This document shows positions 2,890 to 64,000 of a DNA stretch of 64,000 nt, one piece after another. The stretch is from contig BFEA01000011.1 of NCBI GenBank assembly GCA_003427395.1, forward strand, positions 314,915 through 378,914. Direction: 5' to 3'. The notes under the pieces are model-generated. The model worked only from the letters and a program-made list of their open reading frames with translations, had not been told where the DNA came from and searched no databases. The stretch comes from Chara braunii (Eukaryota > Plantae > Charophyceae). Positions within the stretch are counted from its first letter, which is position 1. Each line of letters starts with the position of its first letter. Position numbers and translations under genes: made by a program.

Positions 2890-5800
2890 CACACATCAAA
2901 CAACGCGACAACACTCTTAGTCCCTTCAGTAACCATCCAATAACTTTCCGATGCGGAAATCGGATAGGCGTCTCGTGCGAGACTTAGTATAAAATCGCGC
3001 GGACGTAGGGCTAACTCATATCGACTCACAATGCAAGCGTACGCAAATGGTCATAATGATGGCGTACTATGTAGTACCCATACTCATGCGGTCCTCGTTA
3101 ACCTGGAGGATCGCACTCGACACTCAAGTGTTGGCTGACACGCGCCTTAATGGTTAATCTCTCGACGCTGGACAACCGTCTAGTGCAGTTGAGAACCACA
3201 CCCTCTTCTGCACCCTGCAGAGAGTGGGTGGTACACAAGTTCATATCTGTGGTGGCAATTGTCTCTTATTGCCCTTGAGACCAACTCCATCATCTGGGGT
3301 CTGGAGAGAAGTCAAGGGGTTTGACTTTGTCAGTTGCCGCGGACAACAACGTCCAACTATAAAAACATTAAAAAGCAAAGGGAAAGAGAGAATCTCCCTT
3401 CTTCCTCAACGCATAATCTGTTTAACCCTTACGCACGGTCACAGTAGGCTGCACGAAACACAGAAGACATATATATACACATACATACATATATATAGAG
3501 GGTTATTAATATAGGACGATCACTTCTCACAGTCACAGTGGGGCTCCTCTCAGCCGTATATATGTGTGTGATCGCAGGTAAATCAAATCTAGTGTCCGAA
3601 CCACAAACATACCTGCAATCACATCAAAGATCCAACAAAAGTCAACGCACTATACGGGGTCAACTTCAACCATTCTCTATGCTCATACCCCTTGCTTTAG
3701 CCATACAAACATCACTCTTGTGCAACTCCCCGAAGAAAATACTCAGTAGTTTTGTTAAATGACCATTCAATAAAGTCCGGGTGAAAACACAATGAAACAG
3801 TTCAAACCACAGGGCCAAAACCTTTTAGGACGAGTGACAAGAGGGAATTAGAGTTGAATCGTAAACCGACGAATCGTCAACCGACCTGTTATTAGTGATA
3901 ACAGAGGATGATCCTTGTAAGATCAAGTTGAAACCAGCTCTAATCCTGAATCAATCGATCAAGAAGACTTGAAACACAAGATAGACCAATTCCAAGTTAA
4001 GTCTATAAGTCTATGGAGAATTAACCTCCATATCACGATCTCACTCAAATCATCCTTATTAACTAAGCCTAAGCCTACCTCCAAACAAGTGCCCAAAGTA
4101 AAGGTACACTAATGGCAGAATCTCCCCTATTCAGGGTGGATCGCCAAAACCGTCACCTGTCAAAATACAATCTATCTTCTTTAAGCTAAAAGAATTTCGG
4201 CAGCGCTTCCCGTAGGAAAAGTGTCTTTCCAGAATTTATATCAACATGAATATGAACGCAGAAATAGTTTTTGACTTTTCAAAGTCCAATTTTTGTAACT
4301 CCATGAATTAACAAAAATTTGGGCAGCACTCCCTTTGGAAAAGAGACTTTCCAAATTTTCACTAAGCCATGTATGAACTTTAGACAAGTTGAACTTTGCA
4401 AAGTCAAAATTTGACTAACTCCTTGGATTTGCAGAAATTTCGGCAGCGCTTCCCGTAGAGAAAGTAGCGTACCAAAATTTATACAAAGCCAAATATCATA
4501 AAAGATCCCAGAAAATACGAGAATTGATCTAAGTAGAATAAAGTTAGCTCAGAAAATGCAGGAATTGAACTAACTTCTAAAGCTCTAGCACGTGGCGAGC
4601 AACTAAAGCAACTACCTGTCAAACTGAAACTCAGACTAAGTAGTGACCCCACCCAGTCACATGCAGGCGAAACCACAAGGGTAAGTACTCTCACCATCAC
4701 AAATCAACTTGTCAAACAATAGTTCATAGTCTTTCAGTGATTCAACCCCTTATCCCCAGCTTACATAAGGCATAAGGTCAGAACACCCAAACTTATGGAA
4801 TGAAGCTTACCTTAGCCAGGCCTAAAGTCAAGCCACCCAAACTTATAGAATGAGCCCAACTTAGCCAATGTATACACAAACACATGACACAACAACTTTT
4901 CTCTTCTTGGGGCGTACGACTAGACCATTCTAGTCGCCCTGAACTGTTTAAGTAGCAAGATTATATATGCCTCTTTGAACTTAATCTTCAAAGCGGGCGT
5001 AGGACTGAGTCATTCATCTTAGAAACAATGCACAGTCGGCCCACGTTACCTTCAATTATACTCTTAATTATACTCTGTTCAGGTTGGAATAAGCTATAGT
5101 CAGACCACCTAAACTTATAGAACAGTCTGATCACCTTGTTCATAAGTAGAATAATAATAAAATATAGTCAAATTATAACCTTGGGTTCCAACGTGTACGG
5201 GCTTAGAGGGTGACCACATGAACTTACAGAACAGTCCGACTCTCTGCCTGATTCATTTCTCTTTGATCTAGCTATGCGTGGCATTGGGCTAGACCACCTG
5301 AACTTACAGAACGGTCTGCCCTTTGTCAAGTTCATTTTCTCAAAGTAAAGCAGGAAGAGGCTAAGCCACCTAAACTTATAGAACGACTCAGACCTCCTCG
5401 TTCAAAACCAAATAAACAGAGAAAAACTCAAGATAACCAAGGCAACCAAGACACCTGAACTTACATAATGCACTTGGCCCCTGAAGAAGTCAATCACAAA
5501 CCGCCCTCGCAAGTCAGAGCAACCAGACCACCTAAACTTATAGAACAATATGGTCCTCAAGGCAATTCCACAACACCGGGTCTCCCCAAACTTTTGGGAC
5601 TTCCCAGCTTCCAGAGCAATCAGACCACCTAAACTTATAGAACGGTCTGACGCTCCACACAATCCAAAATAAAACATAGCACTGGGTCTCCCCAAACTTT
5701 TGGGGACTTCCCAGCCTTACTGACACAGTCAAATTTTAAAGCAATACTGCATTCCTACCAACCTTCCCCCCAGATACAATTCTCTTTTGTTCACAATCTG

Positions 5801-9509: not shown

Positions 9510-12114
9510 ACTTACTGGACCATATTAAACGACGTCCCCGTTGCTCCGCCAAATCAGAAAGCTATAAACCCATCCTAAACCCCAAATGTTGACGGTAAAG
9601 GAATCAATCCGATTAGCCGACAGACTTAGGTTAGAGGCCTCCAACAACCTGTGCCGACACAACTGTATGCTGCCAAGGTTTCAACCTAGGTCTCCATTGC
9701 CCTGGCATTAGAACGCCGGTGTATTACGCATCAATACTACAGCATAAGTTCCAAAGGCCTCCTGAAACCGTCCTCTCCCCTTCGTCCTAGACAAACGCCG
9801 GCTTCTCGTTGAGTGCCCCTGTTAGACTCTTCCTCGTAAGCAGAGCCCTCCCCAGGGACGCGGGCCTTAAATGTGACCTTAGAAGGCATCATCTCGCCTC
9901 CCTCCCAAAATCCTCACAATCAAACGCATATGTATAAGTATACTTAAATCTCATTTGAGCTCTTTCTGCAGTCTGGTACAGAAATGCTAGGTCTCCATCC
10001 TAGACCACCATAGTCTGGTTGATCGAACCAGATTTACGACCTACCACATTGTTATCTTAACGGCAGTTCCCTCGCTGGTTAAGCAACGATAAATTTTCTC
10101 TTGATAAGCATTCAATCAGGACTTCCAAAAAGACTCGACTCGTATCCCCCACCATCCCATCGGAGTAATTTCCTGAGGTGTGCATAACCCCTTAAACTCT
10201 TACCCTTTTGGTAGACGAGGACCTGCTGCTAGGTTGTGCTGGCAAGCAGCTATCCACTAGGGGTTGCGCCCTAGAGGTGCTATCCTTTACCGTCTAGCTT
10301 GGTCTTCCTTAAAATTCCCTAGGATTAGCACAAGTGTCCGGGTGGTGTGTCGAAACAAACTACAGGCCCACTGCGGGACTACGCAGGGGTCTGTCTCACT
10401 TACATGCGTTTACCAGCTCCCTATGAGACAACATAGAGAGCACGACACCCTTCGCACAATCATAAACAGAACCACCACCAGGTTCACTTAGGTCGTGGCC
10501 CCTTGACTTGATCAGAGACAGTAAACCACACACCCCGATGACATCTACCAAATGCACTGCTTTGCGACACTCTCAATACCATTCAAACAATTTTCATGGT
10601 TCTTCTCGTCAGACTTTATAAGTTCAAACTTGTTTTACCATGCCCTTAAATCCATTAACCACCTTTCACACGAAGGAAGTCTCATCAATGGGTCTCCTCG
10701 CCATCCCTCTCTTTCTAGGATGAACTATCACGCGACCCTTTTTAAAACACCTTCCTTTTGAAGACGGGTTTTCCAATAAACAACACTACCATCTTCCTTA
10801 ATCTGAAGGGGTCTCAACCATAAAACGACTCAAACTGAGGGACCTACTCATGGGTCCTGTCCACAACTCAACCACGAAAGAACTCAAAATGAGGGACCTG
10901 CTTATGGACCCTCTTCGCAACTCAATCGTAAAACATCCAACATAGTAAGTATTCGAGTCTCAGAGACTCACAAAATCCCTTAGGATTCTCACACTTCTGT
11001 CACACAACAACTGCACTACCTTTCCTTATACTCGGCCCTATCACCCACCCGTGGGCAGATCGCACAAGTATACCGGAGAGTAGACAATCCACATCCATCC
11101 ATTCTTCCAATTCCACGACACACAAGGTGCCTCTTATATATTTTTCCACACAAAATCACCATTCATCAGGATAAAATCCACACATGTGAGAGTGATTGTG
11201 ATCGTCATATACAAAGAAATAGTCTCAGACAACGTTCCAACTCAGACACCCTCAAGGGTATAACATCCCAACTTAGGCGAACAAATATACTCTTGAATTA
11301 CTCGTATACACTTAAAGTCGAATACTCTCGACTCAAGTTGGCACCAATATCACAGAAAGGATGCCACCCCCTTCCTGGCCAAAACTTTTAAACTAAAGCA
11401 GGTCCATATGGGGCGTAATCGTACCCCTCACCTGCCGAAAGAATCTGTATAATTCAAGACATACCTAAATTTTGAATGACCCAAGGCCTATCATGCCTCG
11501 ATGGGTTGTAAGTTCACAACAGCCTCGAGTCAAAGCACTGCTCATACTCTTTCCTCATATCCCGTCGCAACACCCTCGAGGCCTTAAGGCCACGAGAATT
11601 CAAGCTCAAATCCTACCAAACCTCCATGCATATCCTATTTACAAGCGCATGGGTACGTATACCTTTATAATTCAGGGTAGTGCGGCCTAGAGCGAATTCA
11701 ACACTGAAGCACAATCATTTTACTTTGAACCTTTGGGTGATATCCTTAAAGTACATGCCTAAGGGAGCCAACTACCATGATCAAACTAAATCAGTGCTCC
11801 TTAACCCAAATCGCATCCTCACACGGTCTCTTAGCACAATGTACTTCCTACACTCATGGCCCACTCTCACATTTTGATCGCGCTATAGCCATCCTACCCC
11901 TAAACAGTCATAAGAACCTGGGAGATACTTACCCCATCTACCTTAAGGTCTCTTTAGGGTCCCACATACACTCACAAAACCTTAGTGTATACCCCCTCTC
12001 CAACTTATTTAGTATACAGTCAGATCCTTGTTGGCTAAAATACGAGGTCGGGGACCATACAATCAACAATCGCGCTAACCTACTTCCACGTTCACATATA
12101 TAAGATTGAATTTA
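9510..12114 (-). mobile_element. 3' part of internal region 3 (very decayed RNase H/integrase-like DNA)
   Basis: Collinear with 36551-39149. Minus-strand translations give only weak motifs (GWHPF...YFFVYDDH; KGMVRQV...) among many stops, so the domain identity is low confidence. Confidence 0.7.
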
Positions 12115-13954
12115 GCAACCACTTTCGTGCTCAAATCTCCAACGGGGGAACATGTGGGAGCTACACCCACCAGCGGGTGCTATGCCTGCTACGGCAGGGG
12201 GGGCGATACCGGCCAAGGGTGAGCTGGTAGCATCAGGGTCGGGCCCCTCCGATAGGCCAGTCACAGTACCTCCCTTCTGGTTCCCCCCCCTCTTATGAGC
12301 ATCAGCGGTCTCCGCTCAAACGCTACTCCGTAGGAACCAACGGCATACCTCTAGGCAGCGGGCACTAAATTTGCCCACGGATTGCCGTCGGACTGTAGGC
12401 TGAAGTCGAGCTAGGGCCGCTTAAGCTGTGCAGTGGGCGGCGGGCCCGGTTGGACTGCGCTAGCAACTGAGGGCGGAGTAAGGCGGAGCGGAACGATGCT
12501 GTTAGTGCTGTGAGGAGGAGCGACGGATAGCGGAGGCAGAGGGGGATCGGGTGGACCTGGCCCAGATCTTCGCCAGGTACATTCACAGGAAGGGGTGAGC
12601 GGAGCTACAGGGGAAACGCCGAACGGGAATGACGAGTTGATAGCTCAGCAGGTGACGGACAACAGTAGAGAGGAGCGCGATGTGGCAAGGGAGACAGGCC
12701 GTAGTGTGGCCAGGCGCTGGGACCGTGCGGACAAGTGAGACACGGCGGGTTCAGCCGGGCTGCGCTAAGCAGCAGAGAGCGGAGTGCCAGAGGGCGAAGG
12801 AGCAAAGAGGGAAAGTCGAGGGGGGGATGAACCGGGACGAGGTGTCGCGCCGGGTGCGCGCGAGATGCGAATTAGAGATGGCGGGGTGACGGGTCGGGCA
12901 CAGTGGGGATGGAGGTGGAGAAATCCAGGGCGGCAAGCGCAGAGGTAAAGGAAGATCGAAGGAGTGGGCAGACGAAGCAAAGCATGGACGCAGTGCAGGG
13001 TGAGTGAACCAGAGCCACCTATTCCGTCCGGTTCGCTCGATAGTAAAAGTGGCAGGTAACGAGCTCAGGCGCACCCAAGGAACTATAGCTCGCTTGATTC
13101 TTATCGAAATCGGGCGAGGGGAGATGTTACACATGGGTTCTTAGACCTGAGGAGTCTGAATATGATGTTTGTCTGAGAAGGGAATTAGTAGGATAGGTGG
13201 TGCGAGACAGAGGGGCTGCGTGGAGCTATGGCGGAAGGAGGGACGAAGTGAGGAGAAAAATCGAGGTACCACTCGATTCTTGATGGAATCGAGTGGGCTA
13301 AAGGTTGGAATGAAGGTTTGTGGCCGAGACGATCTCGATGGTAGTGTTAGTTTTGGCAATAGGTCAGTGAGAAGAAAATTAGTCATGAAATAGGCTGCGT
13401 CTAGGGGGAAAACTACTTCACAAATATACAATGAATACTCCTGCGTTTTAGCGGAAGATTCATTTGATTTTCCCAGTAATTTCCGTGGGGATGCTGCAGG
13501 CAGACAGTAAAGTTGGAGAGTTACCCGTTACCGGGTGTGTTGATCCTACTGTTAACGGGGAGCTCGCTTTCTCCATCCTGTGCAGGAGTGCGACAGCTTG
13601 TGCACCCGACTGTGTTTTGGCGAAAGGTTCATTCGATATCGGTTATCGTCCCTGCGGGGACTTGCAGCGGGAAGAAAGTGATGTTGGAGACTTACCTGTT
13701 GACCGATACTTTGCCCACTTAGGACGAATCGGCGGGCTGCATGCTCGTGGAAGGATTGGTAGACTTTAGCGAGCGGAGTAGCGGGACAGTGAGCCACATT
13801 GTTAGAAAAGTACTGGTATTAGCTAGTGCGCTGACCAGCCCAACGGTCTGGGTATGTGAAGCAGTTAGGAAAGGAAGTGCATAGAGCAGAAGGAACGGAG
13901 TGCCAAGACTGGTCCGGGAGCTGCGGTGCTGTTGCAGATTGTTACTTGCTAGAA

Positions 13955-14014
13955 NNNNNNNNNNNNNNNNNNNNNNNNNNNNNNNNNNNNNNNNNNNNNN
14001 NNNNNNNNNNNNNN
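13955..14014. other. Assembly gap with a 95-bp sequence duplicated on both sides
   Basis: 60 N. 13860-13954 is identical to 14015-14109. Confidence 0.9.
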
Positions 14015-14709
14015 AGCAGTTAGGAAAGGAAGTGCATAGAGCAGAAGGAACGGAGTGCCAAGACTGGTCCGGGAGCTGCGGTGCTGTTGCAGATTGTTAC
14101 TTGCTAGAAGATCTGCCACCAACTGAGGTACTGACCGATCCACCGTGTAAGGCAACTGCAAGGCTAGCTGCAGGGGAGGCGAACCAGGCGTGTCAGCCAA
14201 AGTACTGTTCAGCTATCAAAAGAGGGTAGCGGGGAATAAGCCATTGGGCAGTATACCTACCGGAGGTGCTTGGATATTGCCCGACCAGTTACATGGCGAC
14301 CAAGAAGAAATGTGAACTCGAGGGAGCGATCGGATAGCGTAAGAGGAATTCGCTGTTGCGTCGGCTGTGCGTCTTGGGTGTTGCAGTATCCGGTGGTGCT
14401 CAGTTGGTTTTCGCCCTGCGTCTTGCCTTGCCTGAGCTTTTTGGGGGAGCGGTTGGCGTGCAATTAGCCTTGTCATACCATTTTGCTGCGCGAACTGTTT
14501 TTTTTTTGGGTCTTTAATGTCTGTCTAGCTGCTGTTCTAGTAAGGTGTGAGGGAAGTGGTTGGACCGAAGGGAAAAACTGTTGTCGTAGCTTAAAGGCGT
14601 GGTGGCGAGAGGGGATACCGCTACGATTCGGGAGTACGTAAGGACGGTCTGTATTGAAAACAGCTTGATTGAAGGTCGACCGGGTTGCTACGCACATTGG
14701 CCATCATTG

Positions 14710-14962
14710 AGGGGCCCTCAGGCGACTGAAGGTTTTAAGGCCCTCTCCTGCGAGTCTGAGAGCACCTTTCTTGGATCTGAGAGACTCAAACTTTCTTCCT
14801 CTGCCTTTCTGACTCTCAGTCTAGTCTTTGGTTACGAGAGGAAGGCGGCAGGCGGGATTGCAACCCGTAGGACCGCAGCAAGGCCTACGTGGGAGGTTAC
14901 CCCACCGATTGCGGGAGCTCTGCCGAACTCTGGAGGAATTCTGGAGGCAGGGGACAGAAAGG
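14710..14962 (+). ncRNA. Conserved structured RNA domain in LTR (multi-hairpin, candidate pseudoknot)
   Basis: Best-conserved block between family 1 and family 2 (63457-63710), with compensatory and G-U-preserving changes (see findings). Confidence 0.6.
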
Positions 14963-15234
14963 TAACCTTCCATTTCCCTCTATAAACCCCAGTTATAACC
15001 CATATCTGTACTACCCATTGCATGTTCTGACTGAATATATGGCAGGCACCCCTACTTTGACTTTTTGGTTTGACCTTCAGAATATGAATCAGACTAAATA
15101 AAAGAATGTATGTGTAATCTCAGCTTCAGTTTTGTTGATTGCCTGAACGCAGATTGTGAACAAAAGAGAATTGTATTTGGGGGGGAAGGTTGGGAGGAAT
15201 GCAGTATTGCTTTAAAATTTGACTGGGTCATTAA

Positions 15235-16160
15235 GGTTGGGAAGTCCCCAAATGTTTTGGGAGACCCAGTGCTATGTTTTATTTTGGATTGTGTGGAGCG
15301 TCAGACCGTTCTATAAGTTTAGGTGGTCTGATTGCTCTGGAGGCTGGGAAGTCCCAAAAGTTTGGGGAGACCCGGTGTTGTGGGATTGCCTTGAGGACCA
15401 TATTGTTCTATAAGTTTAGGTGGTCTGGTTGCTCTGACTTGCGAGGGCGGTTTGTGATTGACTTCTTCAGGGGCCAAGTGCATTATGTAAGTTCAGGTGT
15501 CTTGGTTGCCTTGGTTATCTTGAGTTTTTCTCTGTTTATTTGGTTTTGAACGAGGAGGTCTGAGCCGTTCTATAAAGTTAGGTGGCTTAGCCTCTTCCTG
15601 CTTTACTTTGAGAAAATGAACTTGACAAAGGGCAGACCAGACCGTTCTGTAAGTTCAGGTGGTCTAGCCCAATGCCACTCATAGCTGGATCAAAGAGAAA
15701 TGAATCAGGCAGAGAGTCGGACTGTTCTGTAAGTTCAGGTGGTCTGCCTGTAAGCCCATACACGTTGGAACCCAAGGTTATAATTTGACTATATTTTATT
15801 ATTATTCTACTTATGAACAAGCTGATCAGACTGTTCTATAAGTTTAGGTGGTCTGACTATAGCTTATCGCAACCTGAAGAGAATATAATTAAGAGTATAA
15901 TTGAAGGTAACTTGGAACGACTGTGCATTATTTCTAAGATGAATGACTCAGTCCTACGCCCGCTTTGAAGATTAAGTTCAAAGAGGTATATATAATCTCG
16001 TTACTTAAACAGTTCAGGGCGACTAGAATGGTCTAGTCGTACGCCCAAAGAAGAGAAAAGTTGTGCTACATTGGCTAAGTTGGACTCATTCCATAAGTTT
16101 GGGTAACCGGACTTTAGGTCTAGCTAAGGTAAGGTTCATTCCATAAGTTTGGGTGTCCTG
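15235..16160 (+). repeat. Array of about 11 spaced hairpin repeats with a (T/A)AAGTT hexaloop
   Basis: Loops at about 15250, 15314, 15357, 15411, 15488, 15573, 15650, 15730, 15839, 16094 and 16144. Same array at 4780-5715 (-), 29045-29435 (+, truncated) and 46775-47710 (-). Confidence 0.8.
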
Positions 16161-16429
16161 ACCTTATGCATTATGTATGCTGGGTATAAGGGGTTGAATC
16201 ATTGAAAGACTATGAACTATTGCTTGATAAGTGAACTTGGGATGGTGAGAGTACTTACCCTTGTGGTTTGGCCTGCAAATGACTGGGTGAGGCCACTACT
16301 TAGTCTGAGTTTCAGTTTGACAGGTAGTTGCTTTAGTTGCTCGCCACGTGCTGGAGTTATAGGAGTTAGTTCAATTCCTGCATTTTCTGAGCTAACTTTA
16401 TTTTACTTAGATCAATTCTCGTTTTGTAT

Positions 16430-16720
16430 AAATTTTGGTAAGCTACTTTCTCTACGGGAAGCGCTGCCGAAATTTATGCAAATCCAAAGAGTTAGTCAAA
16501 TTTTGACTTTGCAAAGTTCAACTTGTCTAAAGTTCATATATGGCTTAGGAAAAATCTGGAAAGTATTTTTTTCTAAAGGGAGTGCTACCCAATTTTTTGC
16601 TAATTCAGGGAGTTACAAAAATTGGATTTTGAAAAGTCGAAGATTATTTTTGCGTTCATATTAAGGTTGATATAAATTCTGGAAAGACGCTTTTCATACG
16701 GGAAGCGCTGCCAAAATTCT
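16430..16720 (+). repeat. Three ~120-bp-spaced long-hairpin repeats (GGGAAGCGCTGCCGAAATT motif)
   Basis: Units near 16430-16475, 16550-16597 and 16673-16720. Also at 4192-4480 and 46187-46475. Deleted in LTR c. Confidence 0.7.
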
Positions 16721-18300
16721 CTTAGTTTAAAGGAGATACATTATATTTTGACAGGTCGCGGTTCTGGCGATCCACCTTGAATAGGAGAGATTCTGCATAA
16801 GTCTACCTTTGCTTTGGACACTTGTTTGGAGGTAGGCTTAGGCTTAGTTAATTAGGATGATTTGAGTGAGATCATGCTATGGATGTTAATTCTTCATAGA
16901 TTTATAGACTTAGCTTGGGATTGACCTATCTTGTCTTACAGGTCTTCTTGATCGATTGATTCCAAATTTAAGCTAGTTTCAACTTGATCCTATAAGGATC
17001 ATCTTCTGTTATCACTGATAACAGGTCGGTTGCCGATTCGTCGGTGTACGATTTAACTCCAATCCACTCTTGTCACTCAACCTAAAAGACTTTAGCCCTG
17101 TGGTTTGAACTGTTTCATTGTGTTTTCACTCGGACTTTATTGAATGACCATTTAACAAAAGTACTGAGTATTTACTTCGGGGAGTTGCACAAGAGTGAGG
17201 TTTGTATACCTAAAGGAAGGGGTATGAGCATAGAAAATGGTTGAAGTTGACCCCGTGTAGTGCGTTGACTTTTGTTGGATTTTTGATGTGATTGCAGGTA
17301 TGTTTGTGGTTCGGACTCTTGATTTGATTTGCCTGTGATCACATACATATATACAGCTGAAAGGAGCCCCACTGTGACTGTGAGAAGTGATTGTCCTGTA
17401 TTAATAACCCTCTATATATATGTATGTATGTGTATATATACATCTTCAGTGTTTCGTGCGGCGTACTATGACCGTGTGTAAGGGTTGAACAGATTATGCG
17501 TTGAGGAAGAAGGGAGATTCCCTCTTTCCCTTTACATTTTAGAGTTTTTATAGTTGGACGTTGTAGTTCGCGACAGCTGTCAAAGTCAAACCGTTTGACT
17601 TCTCTCCAGACCCCAGATGATGGAGCTGGTCTCCAGGGCAATAAGAGACAATTGCCACCACAGGTATGAACCTGTGTACCACGCACTCTTCGCAGGGTGC
17701 AGAAGAGGGTGTGGTTCTCAACCGCACTTGGTGGTTCTCCAGCATCGAGAGATTAACCCTCAAGGCGCGTGTCAGCCGACACTTGAGTGTCGAGTGCGAT
17801 CCTCGAGGTTAACGAGGACCGCATGAGTATGGGTACTACATAGTACGCCATTATTGCGACCGCTTGCATTACGAGTCGATATGAGTTAGCCCTGCGTCCT
17901 CGCGGTCTTATACTAAGTCTCGCACGTGACGCCTTTCCGATTTCCGCATTGGAAAGTTATGGGATGGCTACTGAAGGGACTAGGAGTGTTGTCGCGTTGT
18001 TTGATGTGTGTGTGTGTGTGTTTTATTTTTTTGTCTTCGTAGTGTTCGTAGTGTGGTGTGCGTGTGGTGTGCGTGTGGTGAGTGGGATACGTCCTAGTCG
18101 ACCGACGACGGGCCTCGCTTCGGACTTCAGGCCCCCAAGATGCCGGTTCGCGTGCGGGTCCGATAGAGGCGTACTACCGCGTGTACCCCTTATGCTACAA
18201 CGAAGGCGAAACGCCCTCGGCTGGTCCACCTCGACGATTGCAACTGATCAGCTTTCGTGCTGTGGACTGGTAACTCGACGGGGATACGCCCACCGAGTGG

Positions 18301-18308
18301 AGGTAAGT
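18301..18308 (+). promoter_or_regulatory. Candidate splice donor AG|GTAAGT about 190 nt before the LTR end
   Basis: Perfect consensus in LTRs b, d and x. AGGCAAGT in c, ACGTAAGT in a. Confidence 0.4.
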
Positions 18309-18493
18309 CGTGCCTTGAGTAGGCCCTATCCTGTCATAGGGGCTCGCGCGAGGTATGGCTAGCGCACTCGGCTAGAGCGGCTTGCAGAAACTCCATGTAT
18401 ATTTGTGACGAAAAAATAGACCAACTCCTACGTGACGAGGCAGGGAAGGTCCCGCGCTGCCTTGTGCGGTCCCGAACCGATGCGCTCGACAGG

Positions 18494-18511
18494 TGGCGCC
18501 GTTGTCGGGGA
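18494..18511 (+). promoter_or_regulatory. Primer binding site (tRNA-Asp)
   Basis: TGGCGCCGTTGTCGGGGA, 2 nt after the LTR-terminal CGACA. Confidence 0.9.
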
Positions 18512-19289
18512 TAACGGTTGTCTGCCGTTGTCCCTGGTGGAACAAAATCGAAGTATGAGAATGTGAGAACTACACAAGGTGAGAAGTTTTTGGGCTTTAT
18601 GGTTAAGTGATTGAAGGTGTTGGATAGAAAGCGAGTGCAGTGAGGGTTGATTGTGTGAGTGGGTTCTCGTTGGTGCAGTGAGGATGGCGTGAGCGGGATA
18701 AGTTTTCACTATGCTCTTACGTACCCTGACTAGCATGATGACAGTTGGAGTTGAGTACGGTTTTAGACCCTGATAGCTGACTGGCTCGGACGATGCTTTG
18801 CCTAGTTGATATGGTTGTGGTGAAATAAGATGATACGAATGTAACTGGGCATGTTGGTTGAGGGATTTTGCCTCATAAGGTACCCATTATGGCTAAGGGG
18901 AGTTATACGAGCGGTTAAGAGTGCAATAGGGTACTTAAGCTTTAGAGCAAGGCATAGGATGAGTAAAGGAACCCTATTATGTTAGAAGTCATCAAGGGAC
19001 TTCGAGGAGAGTTAGACTAAGGATGTTGAAAGCATGTATGAGTATGGATTGGGATCCTAAAGTCTGGGTTCTAAGCAGTTACTCGTGTTGTATAGCCATG
19101 GAAGTCTGAGGTCTGTCTCGCGTGGTATGTTTGAATAAGGTGTATAAGGCAGTAAAGAGATGCAATGAGCACCGTGTTAAGGCCTCAATAAAAAAGGCTA
19201 CGGGGAGTATTGGATTTGCATGACGCCTGTCCCTATAAAGGAGGGTATCTGATCCTAGAGGCAGGAGGAGTAGCAGTAAAGAAGCTATC

Positions 19290-20230: not shown

Positions 20231-20466
20231 AATTTTAATATTTATAAATACTATATTATCGAGATATATTACCAGTACTATTGTCATCTAAGCAGGGTGG
20301 TTGTAAACACTGGATAGGAGGCAATTTAGGGAAAGATGATATGAAGCCGAGTCTTCAAGGGTGGGGATTGTATATTGTGATCGTCAGCATGGTAACGGAA
20401 GGCGTATGCTGGGCGTTTTTTTTTGTGTGATGGGCAGAACCCAGACCAGAGCAAAGGCAACTCAGG

Positions 20467-21393: not shown

Positions 21394-21900
21394 AGGGTGG
21401 CCTTGTATCCTACCAGAGTGTGTCCTTTATGGCCTTGTGCACATAGGTGGGTATGAGAGCAGGGTTGGTAGACTAATCGATTGTGTGAACTGAACACCTA
21501 TGTTTTAGTCGGCAGGGTCATGAGGGTATGTCGAATGGGCCGTGAGGCATGTATATATGTATTTTAGTGCATGGGGTGTATGTACCGGATCCTAGGTAGG
21601 CTTGCTCTCGAACCTTGTGTATTCCCAAGGGATAGGTTGGTTAGAGTAGAAGCCGGGATCTCGCCTATGATATGAGTACAGGATCAGTAACGCTTCGATG
21701 ATTGTCCGCCTAAGCCTTACTTTGAGCGCCCTGCCGATGTGAGGTGTATATTGTCTATAATTAAGGTCATATGGCGTGGATGGAAAGAGGGATGGTGTGA
21801 GTTGAGCATTAGTCATCTCTACTAGCCTCATGTTTGAGTTTTTGGCATTACAACCTGATGATCAATTACTTGTCGTGTGTGCCAGGCCGGTACCAGCATC

Positions 21901-23720
21901 ATGGCCGAAGAAAGTGATTTCGCCAAAATCCTACTCTGGAGGAGCGCGTGCCTCAGTAAAGTGCTACTGTGCGAGTCATTGAGCGACTCGATGCTCCCAG
22001 AACTTTGTGCCCTGCTGTTTCAGGAAAGAAATCTGTCTGCCTTCCTGTGTGGCTATCATGACTTCAGTCTCGTGAAGAGGTGAGACAAGAAGGCGATGTG
22101 GAGCATGTTACCAATGTTTGTCTGAAAGAGTTGAGTGAGGAGGTGTATACCCCTGTGTAACCATTTGAACGCTGTAAACGTGCGTTCGCGTTCAAATGTG
22201 CGTTTGAACGCGGATTTAAATTCTCGTTCAAAATTGAACGGCGTTCAATTTTTTTTTAATTTTTTTTTAAATCATTTCGATGTCTAAAAATAACTTTTTT
22301 TTCTGATTTTGTTTTTAGGAGTTCTGTATAATGGCGGTGTCAAATTGTGTTCGCTCACTTATTTCAATTCTTTTTTTTCTACTTTTCTATTTTTTGTTTT
22401 CTATTTTTTTTTTCCAATTTGGTAACGAATTTAGATGTAATGCTCAGGCAAATGTTGTTTATTTTATTTTTCTCCATAACATTTTTTTTTTTCCAGAAGT
22501 TTTTGAGTTTTGTTTTTGTTTTTTTTTCCCCCCCGAGTGGAATTGAACTCCACGTTCGGTCCCGTTCATTGAACGCATGTGCATTCCGTCCAGTTTCTGA
22601 ACGGAAAACCCGCGTTCAATGAACGCGCGATTTCACAGGTATACCCTTATGCTAAAGTCGCAGACCTGGGACGAGCTGGAAAGTTTTCTAAAGTTGAGAT
22701 TTCCAGAGGATGGAGCGGAAGACCAGCTTGGTGAAGGCCTTGAGCAACCAGCTGGGGTTACGTCAACACAAGGTGAGCTGAGTGGTATACAGAGGCAAGT
22801 TGGGATGCTAGAAGAGAGCTTGACGTGATTGGAAGAAGCCAGGCGTGGCAAGAGGAAGGCCTCTGAAGGAGCATCCAGTGGGCCGGCTGGGCAGGATGAG
22901 GCAGAGGCAAGGGGAGATCATCATAAGTTACTCCTCCACAAGGGAACCTCGAAGGGGCGAGCCTGCGCCCCGGAAAGAGGCGAAGGCGAGGGATTCATTG
23001 AGATAAAGGGGGAGCGGGGAGCTAGTGCGGCCCTGCCTGTCATTGCGCCTGATCCGAAGAGAGGGCTCATTAACGTGGAAGCATCCTCAGCTGGGGGGCG
23101 GAGAGAGCAAAAGAGCAGGTGGTGGCGAGAGCACCAGGCGAAGATAGTATGTGATCGTTCTGGAAAAATTGGTCATGCCCCTCGAGGGTGTAAAGGAAAG
23201 GGGGTGACAGGGGTAAGAGGAAAGCCTGAGCCTCCCAAGTTGACGAAGGCTCAGTGGAAGGCGAGGAATCGGGCCTAAGGGAGCCAAGGTATCGGAAAGG
23301 GGCAGGGCCCGCGACAGCAAGGGGCCACCCCGTAAGAGTTGAGAGGCAAACCATCACAGGGAGGGCCCCCGCCAACTGAGCTGGCACTATACGGGCCGTG
23401 GACACCATACGGTCAAGTGGGACCAAGGCCTATTTATAATCAATATCTGCCCTGAATACAAGGCATTTGTTTGGGCCCACAAATAAGTATGATACCGCCT
23501 AGGCCTCCCGCAGTCCAGATTCGGCCAACTCTGCCTATGAGACTGTTGCAGCCATCGACAAAGCGGGTGCCACAAGGCGACATGGCCGGTGCAAAAAGCC
23601 AGAGGCGGGAAGCTGGGAGAGGCCGCGGGGATGGAGGGCGCAACAATAGAGGACGAGGTAGCGGCAGGGGAGGCACTGGAGGGCACGATAGATGCCAGCG
23701 GAACCACAAGGGGGATATGG
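21901..23720 (+). pseudogene. gag: Gag-like ORF copy (stops, MITE insertion, 3' deletion)
   Basis: MAEESDF start, decayed knuckle CDRSGKIGHAPRGC, RGG-rich tail. Confidence 0.7.
22153..22638. mobile_element. 486-bp MITE, 8-bp TSD GTATACCC
   Basis: TSD at 22145-22152 and 22639-22646. Termini CTGTGTAA/TTTCACAG. Many subterminal GAACGC motifs. Empty site at 34491. Confidence 0.9.
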
Positions 23721-28100: not shown

Positions 28101-31100
28101 ACGGCGGCCAAGAAGAACTAAGAAGCCGAGGGAGCGATCGGATTGCGTAAGAGGAATTCGTTGTTGCGCCGGCTGTGCATCTTGGGTGCTACAGTATCCG
28201 GTGGTGCTCAGTTGGTTTTCGCTCTGCGTCTTGCCTTGCCTGGGCTTTTTGCGGGAGTGGTCGGCGTGCAATTAGCCTTGTGATACCATTTTGTTGCGCG
28301 AACTGGTTTTGTTTTTCTCTTTAATGTGTGTCTAGATTCTGTTTTGGTAAGGTGTGAGGGAAGTGGTTGGACCGAAGGGAAAAGCTGTTGTCGTAGCTTA
28401 AAGGAGTGGTGGCGAGAGGGGATACCGCTACAGTTCGGGAGTACGTCAGGACAATCTGTATTCAAAACAACTTGACTGCGGGTTGACCAAGTTGCTACTC
28501 ACATTGGTCATCATTGAGGGGCCCTCAGGCGACTGAAGGTTTCAAGGCCCTCTCCTGCGAGTCTGAGAGCACCTTTCTAGGATCTGAGAGCCTCAAACTT
28601 TCTTCCTATGCCTTTCAGACTCTCAGTCTAGTCTTTGGTTACGAGAGAAAGGAGGCAGGCGGGATTGCAACCAGTAGGACCGCAGCAAGGCCTACGTGGG
28701 AGGTTACCCCACCGATTGCGGGAGCTCTGCCAGAACTCAGGAGTAGTTCTGGAGGCAGGGAACTGAAAGGTAACCTTCAATTTCCCTTTATAAACCCCAG
28801 TTATAACCCATGTCTATACTACCCATTACATGTTCTGACTGAATATATGGCATGCACCCCTACTTTGACTTTTTGGTTTGACCTTCAGAATATGAATCAG
28901 ACTAAATAAAATAATGTCTGTATAATCTCAGCTTCAGTTTTGTTGATTGCATGAAGGCAGATTGTGAACAAAAGAAATTTGTATCTAGGGGGAGAAGGTT
29001 GGGAGGAATGCATTATTGCTTTTAAATTTGATAGGGTCATTAAGGCTAGGAAGTCCCCAAAAGTTTGGGGAGACCCGGTGCTGTGGGATTGCCTTGAGGA
29101 CCAAACTGTTGTATAAGTTTACGTGGTCTGGTTGCGCTGACTTGCAAGGGCTGTTTGTGATTGACTTCTTCAGGGGCCAAGTGCATTATGTAAGTTTAGG
29201 TGCCTTGGTTGCCTTGTTTATCTTGGGTTTTTCTCTATTTATTTGGTTTTGAACAAGGAGGTCTGAGCCGTTTCATAAGTTTAGGTGACTTAGCCTGTTC
29301 CTGCTTTATTTTGAGAAAATGAACTTGACAAAGGGCAGACCGTTCTGTAAGTTCAGGTGGTCTAGCCCAATGCCACGCATAGCTAGATCAGAGAGAAACG
29401 AATCAGGCAGAAAGTCGGACTGTTCTGTAAGTTAATTTTCCATAGGCTTAGTTAATCAGGATGATTTGAGTGAGATCATGATATGAAGGTTAATTTTCCA
29501 TAGACTTATAGACTTAGCTTGAGATTGGTCTATCTTGTGTTACAAGTCTTCTTGATCGATTGATTCATGATTTGAGTTAGTTTCAACTTGATCCTACAAG
29601 GATCATCTTCTGTTATCACTGATAACAGGTCGGTAGCCGATTCGTCAGTTTACGATTCAACTCCAATCCCCTCTTGCCACTCATCCTAAAAGACTTTAGC
29701 CCTGTGGTTTGAACTGTTTCATTGTGTTTTCACCGGGACTTTATTGAATGACCATTTAACAAAAGTAATGAATATTTACTTCGGGGAGTTGCACAAAAGT
29801 GAGGTTTGTATGGTTAAAGCAAGGTGTATGAGCATAGAGAATGGTTGAAGTTGATCCCGTGTAGTGCGTGAACTTTTGTTGGATCTTTGATGTGATTGCA
29901 GGTATGTTTGTGGTTCGGACTCTTGATTTGATTTGCCTGTGATCACATACATATATACAGCTGAAAGGAGCCCCACCGTGACTGTGAGAAGTGATCGTCC
30001 TATATTAATAACCCTCTATAGATATGTATGTAGGTGTATACATATGTCTTCAGTGTTTCGTGCAGCCTACTCTGATCATGCGTAAGGGTTAAACGGATTA
30101 TGCGTTGAGAAAGAAGGGAGATTCCCTCTTTCCCTTTTCTTTTTAGAGTTTTTATAGTTGGACGTTGTAGTCCGCGGCAGCTGTCATAGTCAAACCCCTT
30201 GACTTTTTTTCAGACCCCAGATGATGCAGCTGGTATCCAGGGCAATAAGAGACAACTGCCACCACAGGTATGAACCTGTGTACCACCCACTCTCCGCAGG
30301 GTGCAGAAGAGGGTGTGGTTCTCAACCGCACTTGGCGGTTGTCCAGCGTCGAGAGATTAACCCTCAAGGCGCGTGTCAGCCGACACTTGAGTGTCGAGTG
30401 CGATTCTTGAGGTGAACGAGGACCGCATGAGTATGGGTATTGTATCGTACGCCATCATTGCGACCACTTGTGTACGCTTGCATTGCAAGTCGATATGAGT
30501 TAGCCCTGCGTCCGCGCGGTTTTATACTAAGTCTCGCGCACGACGCCTATCCGATTTCCGCATCGGAAAGTTATGGGATGACTACTGAAGGGACTAGGAG
30601 CGTTGTCGCGTTGTTTGATATGTGTTTGTGTGTTTTATTTTTTTGTGTTCGTAGTGTTCGTAGTGTGGTATGCGGGTCGTGAGTGGGATACGTCCTAGTC
30701 GACCAACGACGGGCCGTGCTTGGGACTTCGGCCCCCCAAGATGCCGATTCGTGTGCGTGTCCGATAGAGGAGTACTACCGCCCGTACCCCCTATGCTACA
30801 GCGAACGAGAAACGCCCTCGGCAGGTCCACCTCTGCGATTGCAACTAATCCGCTTTCGTACTGTGGACTGGTAGCTCGGCGGGGATACACCCACCAAAGG
30901 GAGGTGACCGCTCCCGTAAGGTGGAGGCAAGTCGTGCCTCAAGTACGCCCTATCCTGTCGTAGGGGCTCGCGGGAGGTATGGCTGGCGCACTCGGCCGGA
31001 GCGGGTTGCGGAAGCTCCATGTATATTCGCGACGAAGGAATAGACCAACTCTTGCGTGACACGGCCGGGAGGGTCCCGCACTGCCTTGTGCGGTGTCGGA

Positions 31101-44412: not shown

Positions 44413-47400
44413 TTTCGAGCGCATCGGTCCGACACCGCACAAGGCAGCGCGGGACCCTCCCGGCCCCGTCACGCAGGAGTTAGTCTATTCCTTCGTCGCA
44501 AATATACATGGAGCTTCCGCAAGCCACTCCGGCCGAGTGTGCCAGCCATACCTCCCGCGAGCCCCTACGACAGGATAGGGTCTACATGAGGCACGACTTA
44601 CGTCCACCTTACGGAAGCTGTCACCGCCCTCCGGTGAGCGTATCCCCGCCGAGCTACCAGTCCACTGTACGAAAGTTGATCAGTTGCAATCGCAGAGGTG
44701 GACCAGCCGCGGGCGTTTCTCGTTCGATGTAGCATTGTGGGTACGAGCGGTAGTACTCCTCTATCGATCCCGCACACGAACCGGCATCTTGGGGGGCTGA
44801 AGTCCCAACCGCGGTCGACTAGGACGTATCCCACTCACCACGAGCACACCACACTACGAACACTACGAACAAAAAAAAATAAAACACACACACACACACA
44901 TCAAACAACGCGGCAACAGTTCTAGTCCCTTTACTAGTCATCCCATAACTTTCCGATGCAGAAATCGAATTGGCGTCCCGTGCGAGACTTAGTAAAGAAC
45001 CGAGCGGACGCAGGGCTAACTCATATCGACTCGCAATGCAAGCGGTCGAAATGATGTTGTACTATGTAGTACCCATACTCATGCGGTCCTCGTTAACCTC
45101 GAGGATCGCACTCGACACTCAAGTGCCGGCTGACACGCGCCTTGAGGGTTAATCTCTCGACGCTTGACAACCGCCAAGTGCGGTTGAGAACCACACCCTC
45201 TTCTGCACCCTGTGAAAAATGGGTAGTACACAAGTTCATATCCGTGGTGGCAATTGTCTCTTATTACCCTGGAGACCAGCTCCGTCATCTGGGGTCTGGA
45301 GAGAAGTCAAAGGGTTTGACTTTGACAGCTGCCGCGGACTACAACGTCCAACTATGAAAACTCTAAAAAGCAAAGGAAAAGAGGGAATCTCCTTTCATCC
45401 TCAACACATAATCTGTTTAACCCTTACGCACGGTCATAGTACGCCGCACGAAACACTGAAGACATATATATACACATACATACATATATATAGAGGGTTA
45501 TTAATATAGGACGATCACTTCTTACAGTCACAGTGGGGCTCCTCTTAGCCGTGTATATGTATGTGATCGCAGACAAATCAAATCCAGAGTCCGAACCACA
45601 AACATACCTGCAATCACATCAAAGATCCAACAAAAGTCAACGCACTACACGGGGTCAACTTCAACCATTCTCTATGCTCATACCTCTTGCTTTAGCCATA
45701 TAAACCTCACTCTTGTGCAACTCCTCGAAGTAAATACTCAGTACTTTTGTTACATGACCATTCAATAAAGTCCGGGTGAAAACACAATGAAACAGTTTAA
45801 ACCAAAGGACTAAAGCCTTTCACGTTGAGTTGCAAGAGTGGATTGAAGTTGAATCGTGAACCGACGAATCGGCAAGCGACCTATTATCAGTAATAACAGA
45901 CAAATATCCTTATAGGATCAAGTTGAAACTAGCTCAAATCCTGAATCAATCGATAAAGAAGACCTCTAACTGAAGATAGATCAATCCCAAGCTAAGTTTA
46001 TAAGTCTATGGAGAATTAACCTTCATATCATGATCTCACTCAAATCATCCTGATTAACTAAGCCTAAGCCTACCTCCAAACAAGTGCCCAAAGCAAAGGT
46101 AGACTAATGGCAGAATCTCCCCTATTCAGGGTGAATCGCCAGAACCGCCACCTATCAAAATATAATCTATCTCCTTTAAACTAAGAGAATTTCAGTAGCA
46201 CTTCCCGTAGGAGAAGTGTCTTTTCAGAATTTATATCAACATGAATATGAACGCAGAAATAGTTTTTGACTTTTCAAAGTCCAATTTTTGTAACTCCATG
46301 AATTAACAAAAATTTGGGCAGCACTCCCTTTGGAAAAGAGACTTTCCAAATTTTCACTAAGCCATGTATGAACTTTAGACAAGTTGAACTTTGCAAAGTC
46401 AAAATTTGACCAACTCCTTGCATTTGCAGAAATTTCGGCAGCGCTTCCCGTAGAGAAAGTAGCTTACCAAAATTTATACAAAGCCAAGTATCATAAAAGA
46501 TCCCAGAAAATGCGAGAATTGATCTAAGTGAAATAAAATTAGCTCAGAAAATGCAGGAATTGAACTAACTTATAAAACTCTAGCACGTGGCGAGCAACTA
46601 AAGCAACTACCTGTCAAACTGAAACTCGGACTAAGTAGTGGCCCCACCCAGTCACATGCAGGCCAAACCACAAGGGTAAGTACTCTCACCATCACAAATC
46701 AACTTGTAAAACAATAGTTTATAGTCTTTCAATGATTCAACCCTTTATCCCCAGCTTACATAAGGCATAAGGTAAGAACATCCAAACTTATGGAATGAAG
46801 CTTACCTTAGCCAGACCTAAAGTCAAGCCACTCAAACTTATAGAATGAGCCCAACTTAGCCAATGTATACACAAACACATGGCACAACAACTTTTCTCTT
46901 CTTTGGGCGTACGACTAGACCATTCTAGTCACCCTAAACTGTTTAAGTAGTCAGATTATATATACCTCTCTGAACTTAATCTTCAAAGCGGGCGTAGGAC
47001 TGAGCCATTCATCTTAGAAACAATGCTCAGTCGGCCCAAGTTACCTTCAGTTATACTCTTAATTGTACTCTCTTCAGGTTGTGATAAGCTATAGTCAGAC
47101 CACCTAAAGTTATAGAACAATCTGATTAGCTTGTTAATAGGTAGAATAATAATAAAATACAGCCAAATTATAACCTTGGGTTCCAACAAGTACGGGCCTT
47201 GAGTCAGACCACCTAAACTTACAGAACAGTCCGACTTTTTGCCTGATTCGTTTCTCTGTGATCTAGCTATGCGTGGCATTGGGCTAGACCACCTGAACTT
47301 ACCGAACGGTTTGCCCTTTGTCAAGTTCATTTTCTCAAAATAAAGCAGGAAGAGGCTAAGCCACCTAAACTTATGGAACGACTCAGACCTCCTTGTTCAA

Positions 47401-50400
47401 AACCAAATAAATAGAGAAAAATCCAAGATAAACAAGGCAACCAAGGCACCTAAACTTACATAATGCACTTGGCCCCTTAAAAAGTCAATCACAAACAACC
47501 CTCGCAAGTCAGAGCAACTAGACCACCTACACTTATAGAATAGTATGGTCCTCAAGGCCATCCCATAGCACCGGGTCTCCCCAAACTTGTGGGGACTTCC
47601 CAGCCTCCAGAGCAATCAGACCACCTAAACTTATAAAATGGTCTGACGCTCCACACAATCCAAAATAAAACATAGCACTGAGTCTCCCCAAACTTTTGGG
47701 GACTTCCTTGCCTTAATGACCCAGTCAAATTTTTAAAAATACTGCATTCCTCCCAACCTTCCCCTCCAGATACAATTTTTTTTTGTTCACAATCTGCGTT
47801 CAGGCAATCAACAAAATTGCAGATGAGATTACACAACCATTCTTTTATTCAGTCTGATTCATATTATGAAGGTCAAACCAAAAAGTAAAAGTAGGGATGC
47901 ATGTCATATATTCAGTCAAAACATGCAATGGGTAGTATAGATATGGGTTATAACTGGGGTTTATAGAGGGAAATGGAAGGTTACCTTTCAATTCCCTGTC
48001 TCCAGAACTCCTCCTTAGTTCCGGCAGAGCTCCCGCAATCAGTGGGGTAACCTCCCACGTAGGCCTTGCTGCGGTCCTATGGGTTGCAATCCCGCCTGCT
48101 GCCTTCCTCTCATAACCAAAGACTAGACTAAGAGTCAGAAAGGCAGAGGAAGAAAGTTTGAGTCTCTCAGATCCAAGGAAGGTGCTCTCAGACTCGCAGG
48201 AGAGGGCCTTGAAACCTTCAGTCGCCTGAGGGCCCCTCAATGATGGCGAATGTGCGTAGCAACTTGGTCAACCCGCAATCAAGTTGTTTTGAATACAGAC
48301 TGTCATGACGTACTCCCGAACTGTAGCGGTATCCCCTCTCGCCACCACTCCTTTAAGCTATGACAACAACTTTTCCCTTCGGTCCAACCACTTTCCTCAC
48401 ACCTTACTAGAACAGCAGCTAGACACACATTAAAGATCCAAAAAAAACCCAGTTCGCGCAGCAAAATGGTATGACAAGGCAAATTGCACGCCAACCGCTC
48501 CCGCAAAAAAAACAGGCAAGGCAAGACGCAGGGTGAAAACCAACTGAGCACCACCAAATACTGTAGCACCCATTCGCACAGCCGGCGCAGCAAGGAATTC
48601 CTCCTACGCAATCCGAACGCTCCCTCGACTTCATAGTTCTTCTTGGCCGCCGTGTAACCGGCGGGGCAATATCCAAGCACCGCCGGTAGGTACACTGCCC
48701 ATTGGCTCCCCGCTACCCCCTTTTGATAGCTGAACAATACGTTGGCCGACCCGCCTGGTTCGCCTCCCCTGCGGATGACCTTTCAGTTGCCTTACACGGT
48801 GGATCGGTTAGTACCTCAGTTGGTGGCAGATCTTCTAGCAAGTAACAATCTGCAACAGCATCGCAGCTCCCGGACCAGTCTTGGCACTCCGTTCCTTCTG
48901 CTCTATGCACTTCCTTTCCTAACTGCTTCACATACCCAGACCGTTGCGCTGGTCAGCGCACTAACTGAAACGAGTACGTTTCTAACACTTCGGCTCGTTG
49001 TCCCGCTACTCCGCTCACTAAAGCCTGCCAATCCTTCCACCAGCATGCAACCCGCCGATTCTTCCTAAGGGGGCGAAGTACCGGTCAACAGGTAAGTGTC
49101 CAACACCACTGTCTGCCCGCTGCAAGTCCCCGAAGGGACGATGACCGAAATCGAATGAACCTTTCACCAAAACACAGTCGGGTGCACAAGTTGTCGTACT
49201 CTTGCAAAGGATGGAGAAAGCGAGCTCCCCGTTAACAGTAGGATCAATGCACCCAGTAACGGGTAAGTCTCCAACTTTACTGCCTGCCTGCAGCATCCCC
49301 ATGGAAATGACTGGGAAAATCAAATGAATCTTCTGCTAAAACGCGAGAGTATTCATTGTATATTTGTGAAGCAGTTTTCCCCCTAGACGCAACCTACTTC
49401 CTTACTAATTATCTTCTTTCTAACCTATTGCCAAAACTAACACTACCATCAAAATCGCCTCGGCCACAAACCTCTATAGTAACCTTTAGCCCACTCGATT
49501 CCATCAAGAATCGAGTGGTACCTCGATTTCTACCCTCACTTTGTCCCTCCTTCTGCCATAGCTCCATGCAGCCCCTCTGTCTCGCACCACCTACCCTACT
49601 AATTCCCTGCTCAAACTAACATCATATTAAGACTCCCTAGGTCTAAGAAACAATGTGTAGCATCTCCCCTCGCCCGATTCTGATAAGAATCGAGCGAGCT
49701 ATAGTGCCTTGGGTGCACCCAAGCTCGTTACCTGCCACATTTACTATCGAATGAACCGGGCACAATACCTGGCCCTGGTTCATTCACCCTGCACTGCGTC
49801 CATGCTTCGCTTCGCCTGCCCACTCCTTCAATCTTCCCGTACCTCTGCTCCTGCCGCCCTAGTTTTCTCCACCTCCATCCCCACTGCGCTTGGCTCGTCA
49901 CCCCGCCATCTCTCATTTTCATTGCACACACACCCGGCGCGACACCTAGTCCCGGTTCATCCCCGCCTCGACTTTCCCTCTTTGTTCCTTCGCCCTCTGG
50001 CATTCCGCTCTCTGCTGCTTAGCGCAGCCCGGTCGAACCTGCCGTGTCTCGCTTGTCCGCACGGTCCTAGCGCCTGGCCACACTACGGCATGTCTCCCTT
50101 GCCACCTCGCGCTCCTCTCTACTGTTGTCCGTCACCCGATGAGCTATCAGCTCGTCATTCCTGTTTCTCGTCTCCCCTGTAGCTCCGCTCTCCCCTTCCT
50201 GTGAATGTACCCGGGCGAAGATCCGGGCCAGGTCCACCCGATCCGCCTCTGCTTCCGCTATCTGTCGCTCCTCCTCACAGCAGCGTTCTGCTGCACCTTA
50301 CTCCGCCCGCAGCTGCTAGCGCAGTCCGACTGGGCCCGCCGCCTACTGCACAGCTTCAGTGGCCCTAGCTTGACTTCAGCCTACAGTCCGACGGCAGTCC

Positions 50401-52557: not shown

Positions 52558-52693
52558 CCTTAGAAGAAATCCTGTTGAGACTAGTAAGGATAGTTTCCGG
52601 AACTTAGAATGATTGTATCATACTCATGTGCTGAAGTGGGTGTCGAAACAGATGAGTCTATTGATAGAAACTCAAAAGGATTAGTGTTGATTG

Positions 52694-63710: not shown

Positions 63711-64000
63711 GTATATTTTCGTATGACGCGTGTGATCCCTTCCCTTACGTATTATCCTTGGGTTATCTTAAGCTAACTAGGTAAGGATACTGCTTTCGTT
63801 TTGTCATGTATGTCAGGACATGCATTGAGAAAGGATAAATAAACCAGTATATATGAGAGTTCAGATAAACTGAATGGTTTCAGACAGAGTGAACCAAGGG
63901 AAGGTGGGATGGAGGTGTATTGCATGCTTTGACTGGGTCAACCCAAGGCTGGGCCCCTCTAAGTTGATGTGGGCTCAGTGCTGTGTTTTCTTAATGTTTG

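Follow-up and report, generated by a model that had tools for sequence, protein, structure and literature searches.

UAAGUU-loop hairpin array in a Chara braunii retrotransposon LTR, downstream of a candidate splice donor: a putative docking site on unspliced RNA

Introduction

Why would the long terminal repeat (LTR) of a retrotransposon hold a dozen hairpins that largely keep one loop on changing stems? This question is raised by a locus of Chara braunii within the 64,000-nt stretch of DNA analysed here (the window). To our knowledge, it is poorly defined how LTR retrotransposons of the plant lineage tell genomic RNA from spliced or host RNA, and how their non-autonomous copies borrow helper proteins. 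In alphaviruses, repeated stem-loops that share one loop act as packaging signals (PMC5869531), and a packaging role has been proposed for the repetitive structural motifs of coronaviruses (PMC8206606; here and below, PMC numbers refer to excerpts of the cited texts). Below, we describe the element that carries the hairpins, the evidence that they are kept as RNA and their position in the transcript, and we weigh the functions that they may serve.

The Host Element

The window consists of eukaryotic repeat DNA. According to self-BLAST, four copies of a long repeat alternate with three internal regions, and the segment 12113-35779 is inverted relative to the rest of the LTR-internal-LTR chain. 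This 23.7-kb inversion within a tandem chain of four LTRs may be a rearrangement or an assembly artefact. The long repeat starts with TGTCG and ends with CGACA (7,124 nt in copy A, 9509-2386). These ends and the TGG-starting primer-binding site behind them identify it as an LTR; the four copies, about 7.1 kb when complete, are direct repeats with TG...CA ends that flank the internal regions. The primer-binding site at 18494 is presumably of the tRNA-Asp type. An earlier note on this DNA had placed the hairpins inside the LTR, and copy B does enclose them (15236-16161). The following features of copy B and the region behind it are used as reference:

12113..18491 (+): LTR copy B, delimited by self-BLAST and end motifs; its 5' part is cut by the inversion breakpoint and it ends in ...CGACA
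18494..18511 (+): primer-binding site, TGG-starting, two bases past the LTR end of copy B, not tRNA-Met
21901..23719 (+): broken gag-like ORF, interrupted by an insertion (22153-22638), with an RGG-rich tail

In copy C, the gag-like ORF retains an undamaged CCHC knuckle at 35002. The protein has no match to a Pfam capsid, and its predicted fold is of low confidence (pLDDT 46.5), too poor for a structure search. We label the knuckle ORF as a putative Gag by its CCHC knuckle and its gene context. All proteins returned by searches with the Gag-like protein (9 of 9 and 19 of 19) are gene models of Chara braunii. Part of these relatives carry protease, reverse transcriptase (RT), RNase H and integrase domains of the Gypsy type, though the models may be chimeric. 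The pol parts of three of these gene models (P0011, P0016, and P0004) have no tblastn match in the window, so that the element is classed as non-autonomous. Thus, the array resides in a decayed, pol-less Gypsy-type element which, having no RT, is not assigned to a lineage within the group. A candidate extra ORF of 191 codons precedes gag (33036-33611, +). Over 169 aa, it shares 69% identity with a Chara gene model; beyond this, neither a relative nor a fold was recognised for it (no Atlas match).

Inventory of the Hairpin Array

The array of copy B comprises 12 hairpin units (window positions 15236-16161), which are given below together with the arrays of the other copies:

15236..15270 (+): unit 1, purine-rich internal loop; loop at 15251 decayed to AATGTT in copy B
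15301..15331 (+): unit 2, main type; loop at 15314
15343..15376 (+): unit 3, purine-rich internal loop; loop AAAGTT at 15357
15398..15428 (+): unit 4, main type; loop at 15411
15475..15505 (+): unit 5, main type; loop at 15488
15560..15590 (+): unit 6, main type; loop at 15573, TAAAGT in copy B only
15637..15667 (+): unit 7, main type; loop at 15650
15717..15747 (+): unit 8, main type; loop at 15730
15826..15856 (+): unit 9, main type; loop at 15839
15919..15953 (+): unit 10, degenerate; loop TAAGAT at 15935
16081..16111 (+): unit 11, main type; loop at 16094
16131..16161 (+): unit 12, main type; loop at 16144
4774..5716 (-): array in LTR copy A, 12 units
46769..47712 (-): array in LTR copy D, 12 units
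29044..29445 (+): array in LTR copy C, 6 units remaining between two deletions
63945..63980 (+): first unit of the related family E; loop TAAGTT at 63960, other inner stem; the window ends thereafter

In total, the window holds 43 hairpin units in copies A-D and family E. The hexamer TAAGTT occurs ten times in the 933 nt of the copy B array, where 0.51 occurrences are expected, and eight of the ten are hairpin loops. The spacers measure 12-145 nt. The earlier note had described about 11 units with unrelated spacers and an invariant UAAGUU loop. The array itself holds, with 12 units instead of 11; the spacers are mostly unrelated (2 of 55 pairs similar at p<0.02), while units 1-2 and 3-4 resemble a duplicated dimer. 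The loop is not invariant in copy B, where 8 of 12 are exact, yet 29 of the 32 main-type loops in the four copies keep it. The closing stems that the note quoted are present in the sequence, as is the change of the outer stem from TCAGACC/GGTCTGA to CTGAGCC/GGCTTAG. The unit at 63951-63976, which had been assigned to a sister LTR, does occupy the homologous position; the LTR is that of a related family instead, 81% identical in an upstream block and 52% behind it. The stem of this unit is not entirely different as had been proposed: the difference is confined to the inner part, the outer stem being homologous. Separately, in unit 4 of copy C (29111-29122, +) a C-G pair of the inner stem has become G-C, a change by two transversions that is private to this copy.

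Structure and Conservation of the Units

A main-type unit begins with an outer stem of some seven pairs, followed inwards by a small internal loop, a U·G pair and three further pairs that close the UAAGUU loop. The internal loop takes the form of RU facing U, or of an R-U pair with a bulged U. For pair counts, we used nine of the 32 main-type units as paralogues; unit 8 was taken from copy B, since its 3' arm is decayed in copy A, and the other eight came from copy A. Units 1, 3, and 10 and the unit of family E are in another register and were excluded. In all nine paralogues, the fixed part exceeds the loop and includes U(-5), U(-4), G(+4), U(+5), and G(+6), hereafter the UU/GUG motif or core. 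No cell deviates in the loop (0 of 54) or the core (0 of 45), whereas the inner stem has 10 deviating cells among 54, the outer stem 46 among 126 and the flanks 36 among 90. The loop is thus better conserved than either stem among the nine paralogues, the reverse of the finding that the earlier note had named as speaking against selection.

The stems of the nine paralogues covary. Of the 12 stem pairs, 7 show double changes, a count that averages 2.8 in shuffles and is matched by one shuffle in 500; 87% of cells are paired, compared with 29-45% when the register is slid. RNAalifold, unaided, returns the same hairpin, in which five of nine predicted pairs are doubly changed. When all 32 rows (26 distinct) are taken, 35 cells carry double changes compared to 14 in shuffles (0 of 500). 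The number of doubly changed pairs is not significant for all 32 units (8 vs. 6.5; 98 of 500 shuffles), and neither is the measure of further pair types (142 of 500 for 32 units, 239 of 500 for the nine paralogues). The outer stem of unit 6 differs from that of unit 2 by four double changes. As the units are relatives, the independent compensatory events perhaps number about four to six.

G·U outnumbers A·C by 95:15 over all cells and by 14:1 at the ten variable pairs, for which composition predicts 1.9:1, pointing to RNA of the sense strand. Moreover, 23 of 25 units are more stable when folded from the sense strand, and z<=-2 is reached by 17 of 25 units on the sense and 8 of 25 on the antisense strand. 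Selection on a displayed loop, as proposed in the earlier note, is therefore supported by paralogue covariation, the fixed loop, the sense-strand G·U excess and RNAalifold, and takes the form of a sense-strand RNA hairpin. We consider it very likely that the array is a selected sense-RNA structure.

The copies in the window appear to be past this selection. Copies A, B, and D are orthologous and share 91-92% identity; variation among them is spread evenly over spacers, stems and loops, with 6 of 72 loop columns and 55 of 557 spacer columns variable (p=0.83). Loops no better conserved than spacers suggest that these copies are not under selection now, as if dead. In predictions of longer context, many apical stems compete with other folds: a pairing probability above 0.5 is reached by only 3, 3, and 6 of 12 apical stems with a 150-nt span, and by 6, 7, and 6 with a 50-nt span. 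Other genomic copies are visible through read and contig tables only. Among the 35 majority read differences listed first for the arrays (1,154 and 229 more lie beyond them, and reads may cross-map between units), 5 fall in loops, 10 at paired stem positions, 1 in unit 10 and 19 in spacers. Of those listed, all five loop differences move to the TAAGTT letter, and all ten at paired positions give a Watson-Crick pair (six from mismatches, four from G·U).

Leader Layout and Transcription

Upstream of the array, the LTR holds the following three features:

14682..14961 (+): conserved AUG-poor block, likely first exon or R region, from homology, ATG count and read depth
14959..14967 (+): candidate 5' splice site AAG|GTAACC, cut 14961|14962, at which homology ends; its use is presumed
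15097..15102 (+): AATAAA, a candidate poly(A) signal present in each of the five LTR copies

Between families B and E, identity amounts to 81% over 14694-14961 (63443-63710 in E) and to 52% behind. The array follows a candidate splice donor at which the homology between families stops, an arrangement that is new here. In family E the block ends in CAG|GTATAT, and the consensus of loose ends in RNA run X6 supplies a third donor-like ending. AATAAA lies 136 nt downstream of the donor, and the array starts about 275 nt past the donor and 135 nt past AATAAA. The block has no ATG in copy B, where about four are expected, and 0-2 per copy, compared with 147 ATGs from the donor to gag in copy B. TATAAA at 14981 was rejected as a promoter since sense reads are already found over the 300 nt that precede it. 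Within the LTR, expression is highest in the block (14682-14961, 63443-63710), which seems hairpin-rich, although B and E fold differently according to single-sequence predictions.

RNA reads were placed on copy D and come from two stranded poly(A) runs (X5 and X7), whose read strand follows the usual library convention, and from the unstranded run X6. They are mostly <95% alike and hence derive from related copies (one study, 6-13% of each run). The sense reads of X5 and X7 begin near the 5' edge of the conserved block. Sense depth is 39 (X5) and 84 (X7) over the block and 1.3 and 3.8 over the array, where antisense depth is 0.2 and 0.1. The stranded RNA-seq check suggested by the earlier note thus shows the array to be transcribed in sense, from related copies. 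The ratio of block to array depth is 30 in X5, 22 in X7, 4.8 in X6 and about 5-8 in DNA contigs; the drop at the donor fits splicing, and family divergence or cleavage at AATAAA could also lower depth. Two bases past the donor, 11 and 25 reads depart from the reference into one shared continuation that is not donor-like and was not found in the window. The RNA read tables list no spliced joint, and no RNA run is listed among the indexed runs as carrying the sequence.

Summed contig depth, which is not copy number, amounts to 15,000-24,000 over the array and to 95-188 over the upstream LTR part, with most of the internal region likewise low. This suggests that the array is a cassette common to many families. 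The 3' end of the LTR (17678-18343, +) has the highest summed DNA depth (~370,000-400,000) and RNA reads on both strands.

Possible Functions of the Array

Based on sequence and position, we propose that unspliced genomic RNA would offer the array as a multivalent docking site to a protein, most probably Gag in packaging. We assign this reading a probability of about 0.45 and rank it ahead of a role in export or stabilisation. Transcription would start at the conserved block near 14682, and most transcripts would be spliced at 14961, or end at the AATAAA at 15097, and so lose the array. As the array lies behind the candidate donor and the upstream block is covered 22-30-fold more deeply, unspliced genomic RNA is likely the only species to carry the array, as would suit a signal for packaging or export; such RNA would retain it probably once, at the 5' end only. 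The ~150 AUGs between donor and gag suggest that gag is probably translated from spliced RNA. One protein might then read the loop and the internal loop together on any stem, bind many times and select the RNA as genome. Such a protein would explain the conservation pattern. Of the multivalent platform for Gag packaging or export suggested in the earlier note, the position behind the candidate donor thus fits and the role stays putative.

The array might instead be an export or stabilising element for intron-retaining RNA, comparable to CTE, RRE, or RexRE and bound by a host factor or an accessory protein of the element rather than by Gag. The structural and positional evidence for packaging applies here equally. 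Unspliced retroviral RNA needs such elements, and CTE, RRE, RexRE, and RmRE are, like the array, structured cis-elements that serve unspliced RNA, with RexRE located in the LTR (PMC12789967). In addition, the Chara element has an extra ORF upstream of gag (33036-33611). However, this ORF has no recognised relative or fold, and a search of Rfam (ribozymes, IRE, CTE, and others) gave nothing at the gathering threshold within the array. The array has no sequence similarity to the export elements, which in the excerpts of PMC12789967 are not arrays of 12 separate hairpins. A lattice-forming protein such as Gag would suit twelve spaced copies at least equally well. We therefore regard export or stabilisation as unlikely and keep packaging as the preferred reading.

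More improbable still is that the array controls how the donor and the AATAAA close to it are used in splicing and polyadenylation, with the units serving, for example, as U1 decoys or silencer sites. The array lies about 275 nt past the donor and 135 nt past AATAAA, and three units read GTAAGT. In foamy virus, U1 bound at the donor upstream of the poly(A) signal blocks cleavage in the 5' LTR (PMC3694450); in Chara, however, the upstream candidate donor would already do this job, and the array occurs in both LTRs. The U1 decoy that the earlier note offered as an alternative is poorly supported. A G precedes the loop in 3 of 12 units, where it is paired, and this position switches between A-U, G-C, and C-G together with its partner; the other nine units are devoid of this +1 G, which behaves as one of the paired bases of the stem. 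Predicted U1 duplexes reach -5.4 kcal/mol at best among the units, with the rest at -2.6 or weaker, compared to -6.5 and -7.2 kcal/mol for the upstream candidate donors. Missing donor G, covariation of the G as a stem base and duplexes weaker than those of the donors together make a U1 decoy unlikely.

The units could also act as DNA, either as repeated protein sites in the LTR, in the manner of the gypsy Su(Hw) insulator, or as hairpins of single-stranded DNA while reverse transcription proceeds. A fixed motif that recurs some 12 times, with spacers, close to the LTR promoter resembles insulator or enhancer arrays; furthermore, the 8 of 25 units with z<=-2 on the antisense strand fold well there too. 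Double-stranded sites would not need base-pair covariation, however, and the G·U excess is confined to the sense strand, so that we give a DNA function little chance.

Template switching at inverted repeats keeps arms complementary, and a neutral tandem expansion maintained in this manner would accord with the neutral decay of the window copies and with the four double changes of unit 6, which could be one event. Tandem arrays are also frequent in non-coding regions of large plant non-chromoviruses (PMC6317226), yet neutral expansion has an equally small chance because template switching gives perfect palindromes, whereas wobble pairs and an asymmetric internal loop persist here, and because it would not hold an unpaired loop fixed while spacers diverge past recognition and a related family changes the inner stem.

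Comparison With Known Systems

The array is a well-supported new RNA motif array, a variant of repeated same-loop signals with a putative partner. It would work, by analogy, like the repeats of alphaviruses and coronaviruses without being related to them. The alphavirus nsP1 signal has about eight stem-loops with one loop motif, its structure, motif and number matter, and it is found on genomic RNA only; it differs in belonging to an RNA virus, in lying in a coding region and in its GGG motif (excerpts of PMC5869531). The Chara array has 12 units with UAAGUU and an internal-loop motif in a non-coding LTR, and its function is putative. The gUUYCGUc hexaloops of coronavirus SL5 are likewise repeated and conserved on variable stems in a 5' untranslated region, unlike the Chara loops in being present in 2-4 copies on a multiway junction, in sequence and in the unrelated virus that carries them (excerpts of PMC8206606, PMC12513883).

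With respect to layout, the foamy virus LTR resembles the Chara LTR in that its major splice donor precedes the poly(A) signal, just as the Chara candidate donor lies 136 nt before AATAAA; a hairpin array is not described in the excerpts of PMC3694450, and the use of donor and poly(A) signal in Chara is presumed. The plant non-chromoviruses Athila, Tat, and Ogre share very long LTRs, a non-Met primer-binding site, an extra ORF and non-coding repeats with the Chara element (PMC6317226). In contrast to the 7.1 kb found here, their LTRs reach up to ~5 kb as reported in these excerpts, which describe tandem repeats rather than covarying hairpins with unrelated spacers (PMC6317226).

Taken further, Gypsy-type elements of Chara might possess a retrovirus-like leader within a 7-kb LTR (first exon, donor before the poly(A) signal, twelve-fold packaging code) that is shared by many families and their non-autonomous parasites. 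We regard this as a tentative extension, somewhat doubtful at present. If the packaging reading is true, the array would be a sequence-defined multivalent packaging signal in an LTR retrotransposon of the green lineage. The unit of ~31 nt comes with natural variants, making loop, internal loop, stem and copy number separately testable for Gag binding or export. In addition, the array suggests that the LTRs of an abundant Chara repeat have a splice-donor layout which is missing from the annotation.

Searches Beyond the Array

A covariance model built from the 32 main-type units finds these 32; the next match on both strands of the window scores 11.7 bits and the family E unit 9.1. The search with such a model that the earlier note had recommended did not extend the motif, as the 44 contig loci gave seven partial matches confined to the searched core. 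A two-unit pattern matched 41 stretches (40 loci) in metagenome contigs, all of them unrelated satellites or chance matches, and a one-unit pattern gave four single matches in viral contigs, in which a Gag profile search found no locus. Tandem Repeats Finder does not report the array. The literature searched, mostly open-access texts without supplements, contains no account of the Chara array or of a UAAGUU hairpin loop. Loop-loop kissing was rejected: UAAGUU is not self-complementary, and the sense strand of the element has no complement array.

Other Features of the Window

Just downstream of the array, three longer hairpins follow at a spacing of about 122 nt (16425-16480, 16546-16602, and 16674-16720, +) and share a GG-RA...CU-R-CC internal-loop pattern. 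Only one of their 17 RNAalifold pairs is doubly changed, and hence we make no claim of covariation for them. The upstream part of the family E LTR contains a U6 snRNA-like sequence (60434-60540, +; Rfam 49.1 bits, gathering threshold 44), which is probably a captured pseudogene. At 27718-27907, about 85 bases are repeated on either side of the N gap 27803-27822, likely an assembly overlap. Finally, an 11-bp tandem repeat in 10 copies is located at 52688-52800.
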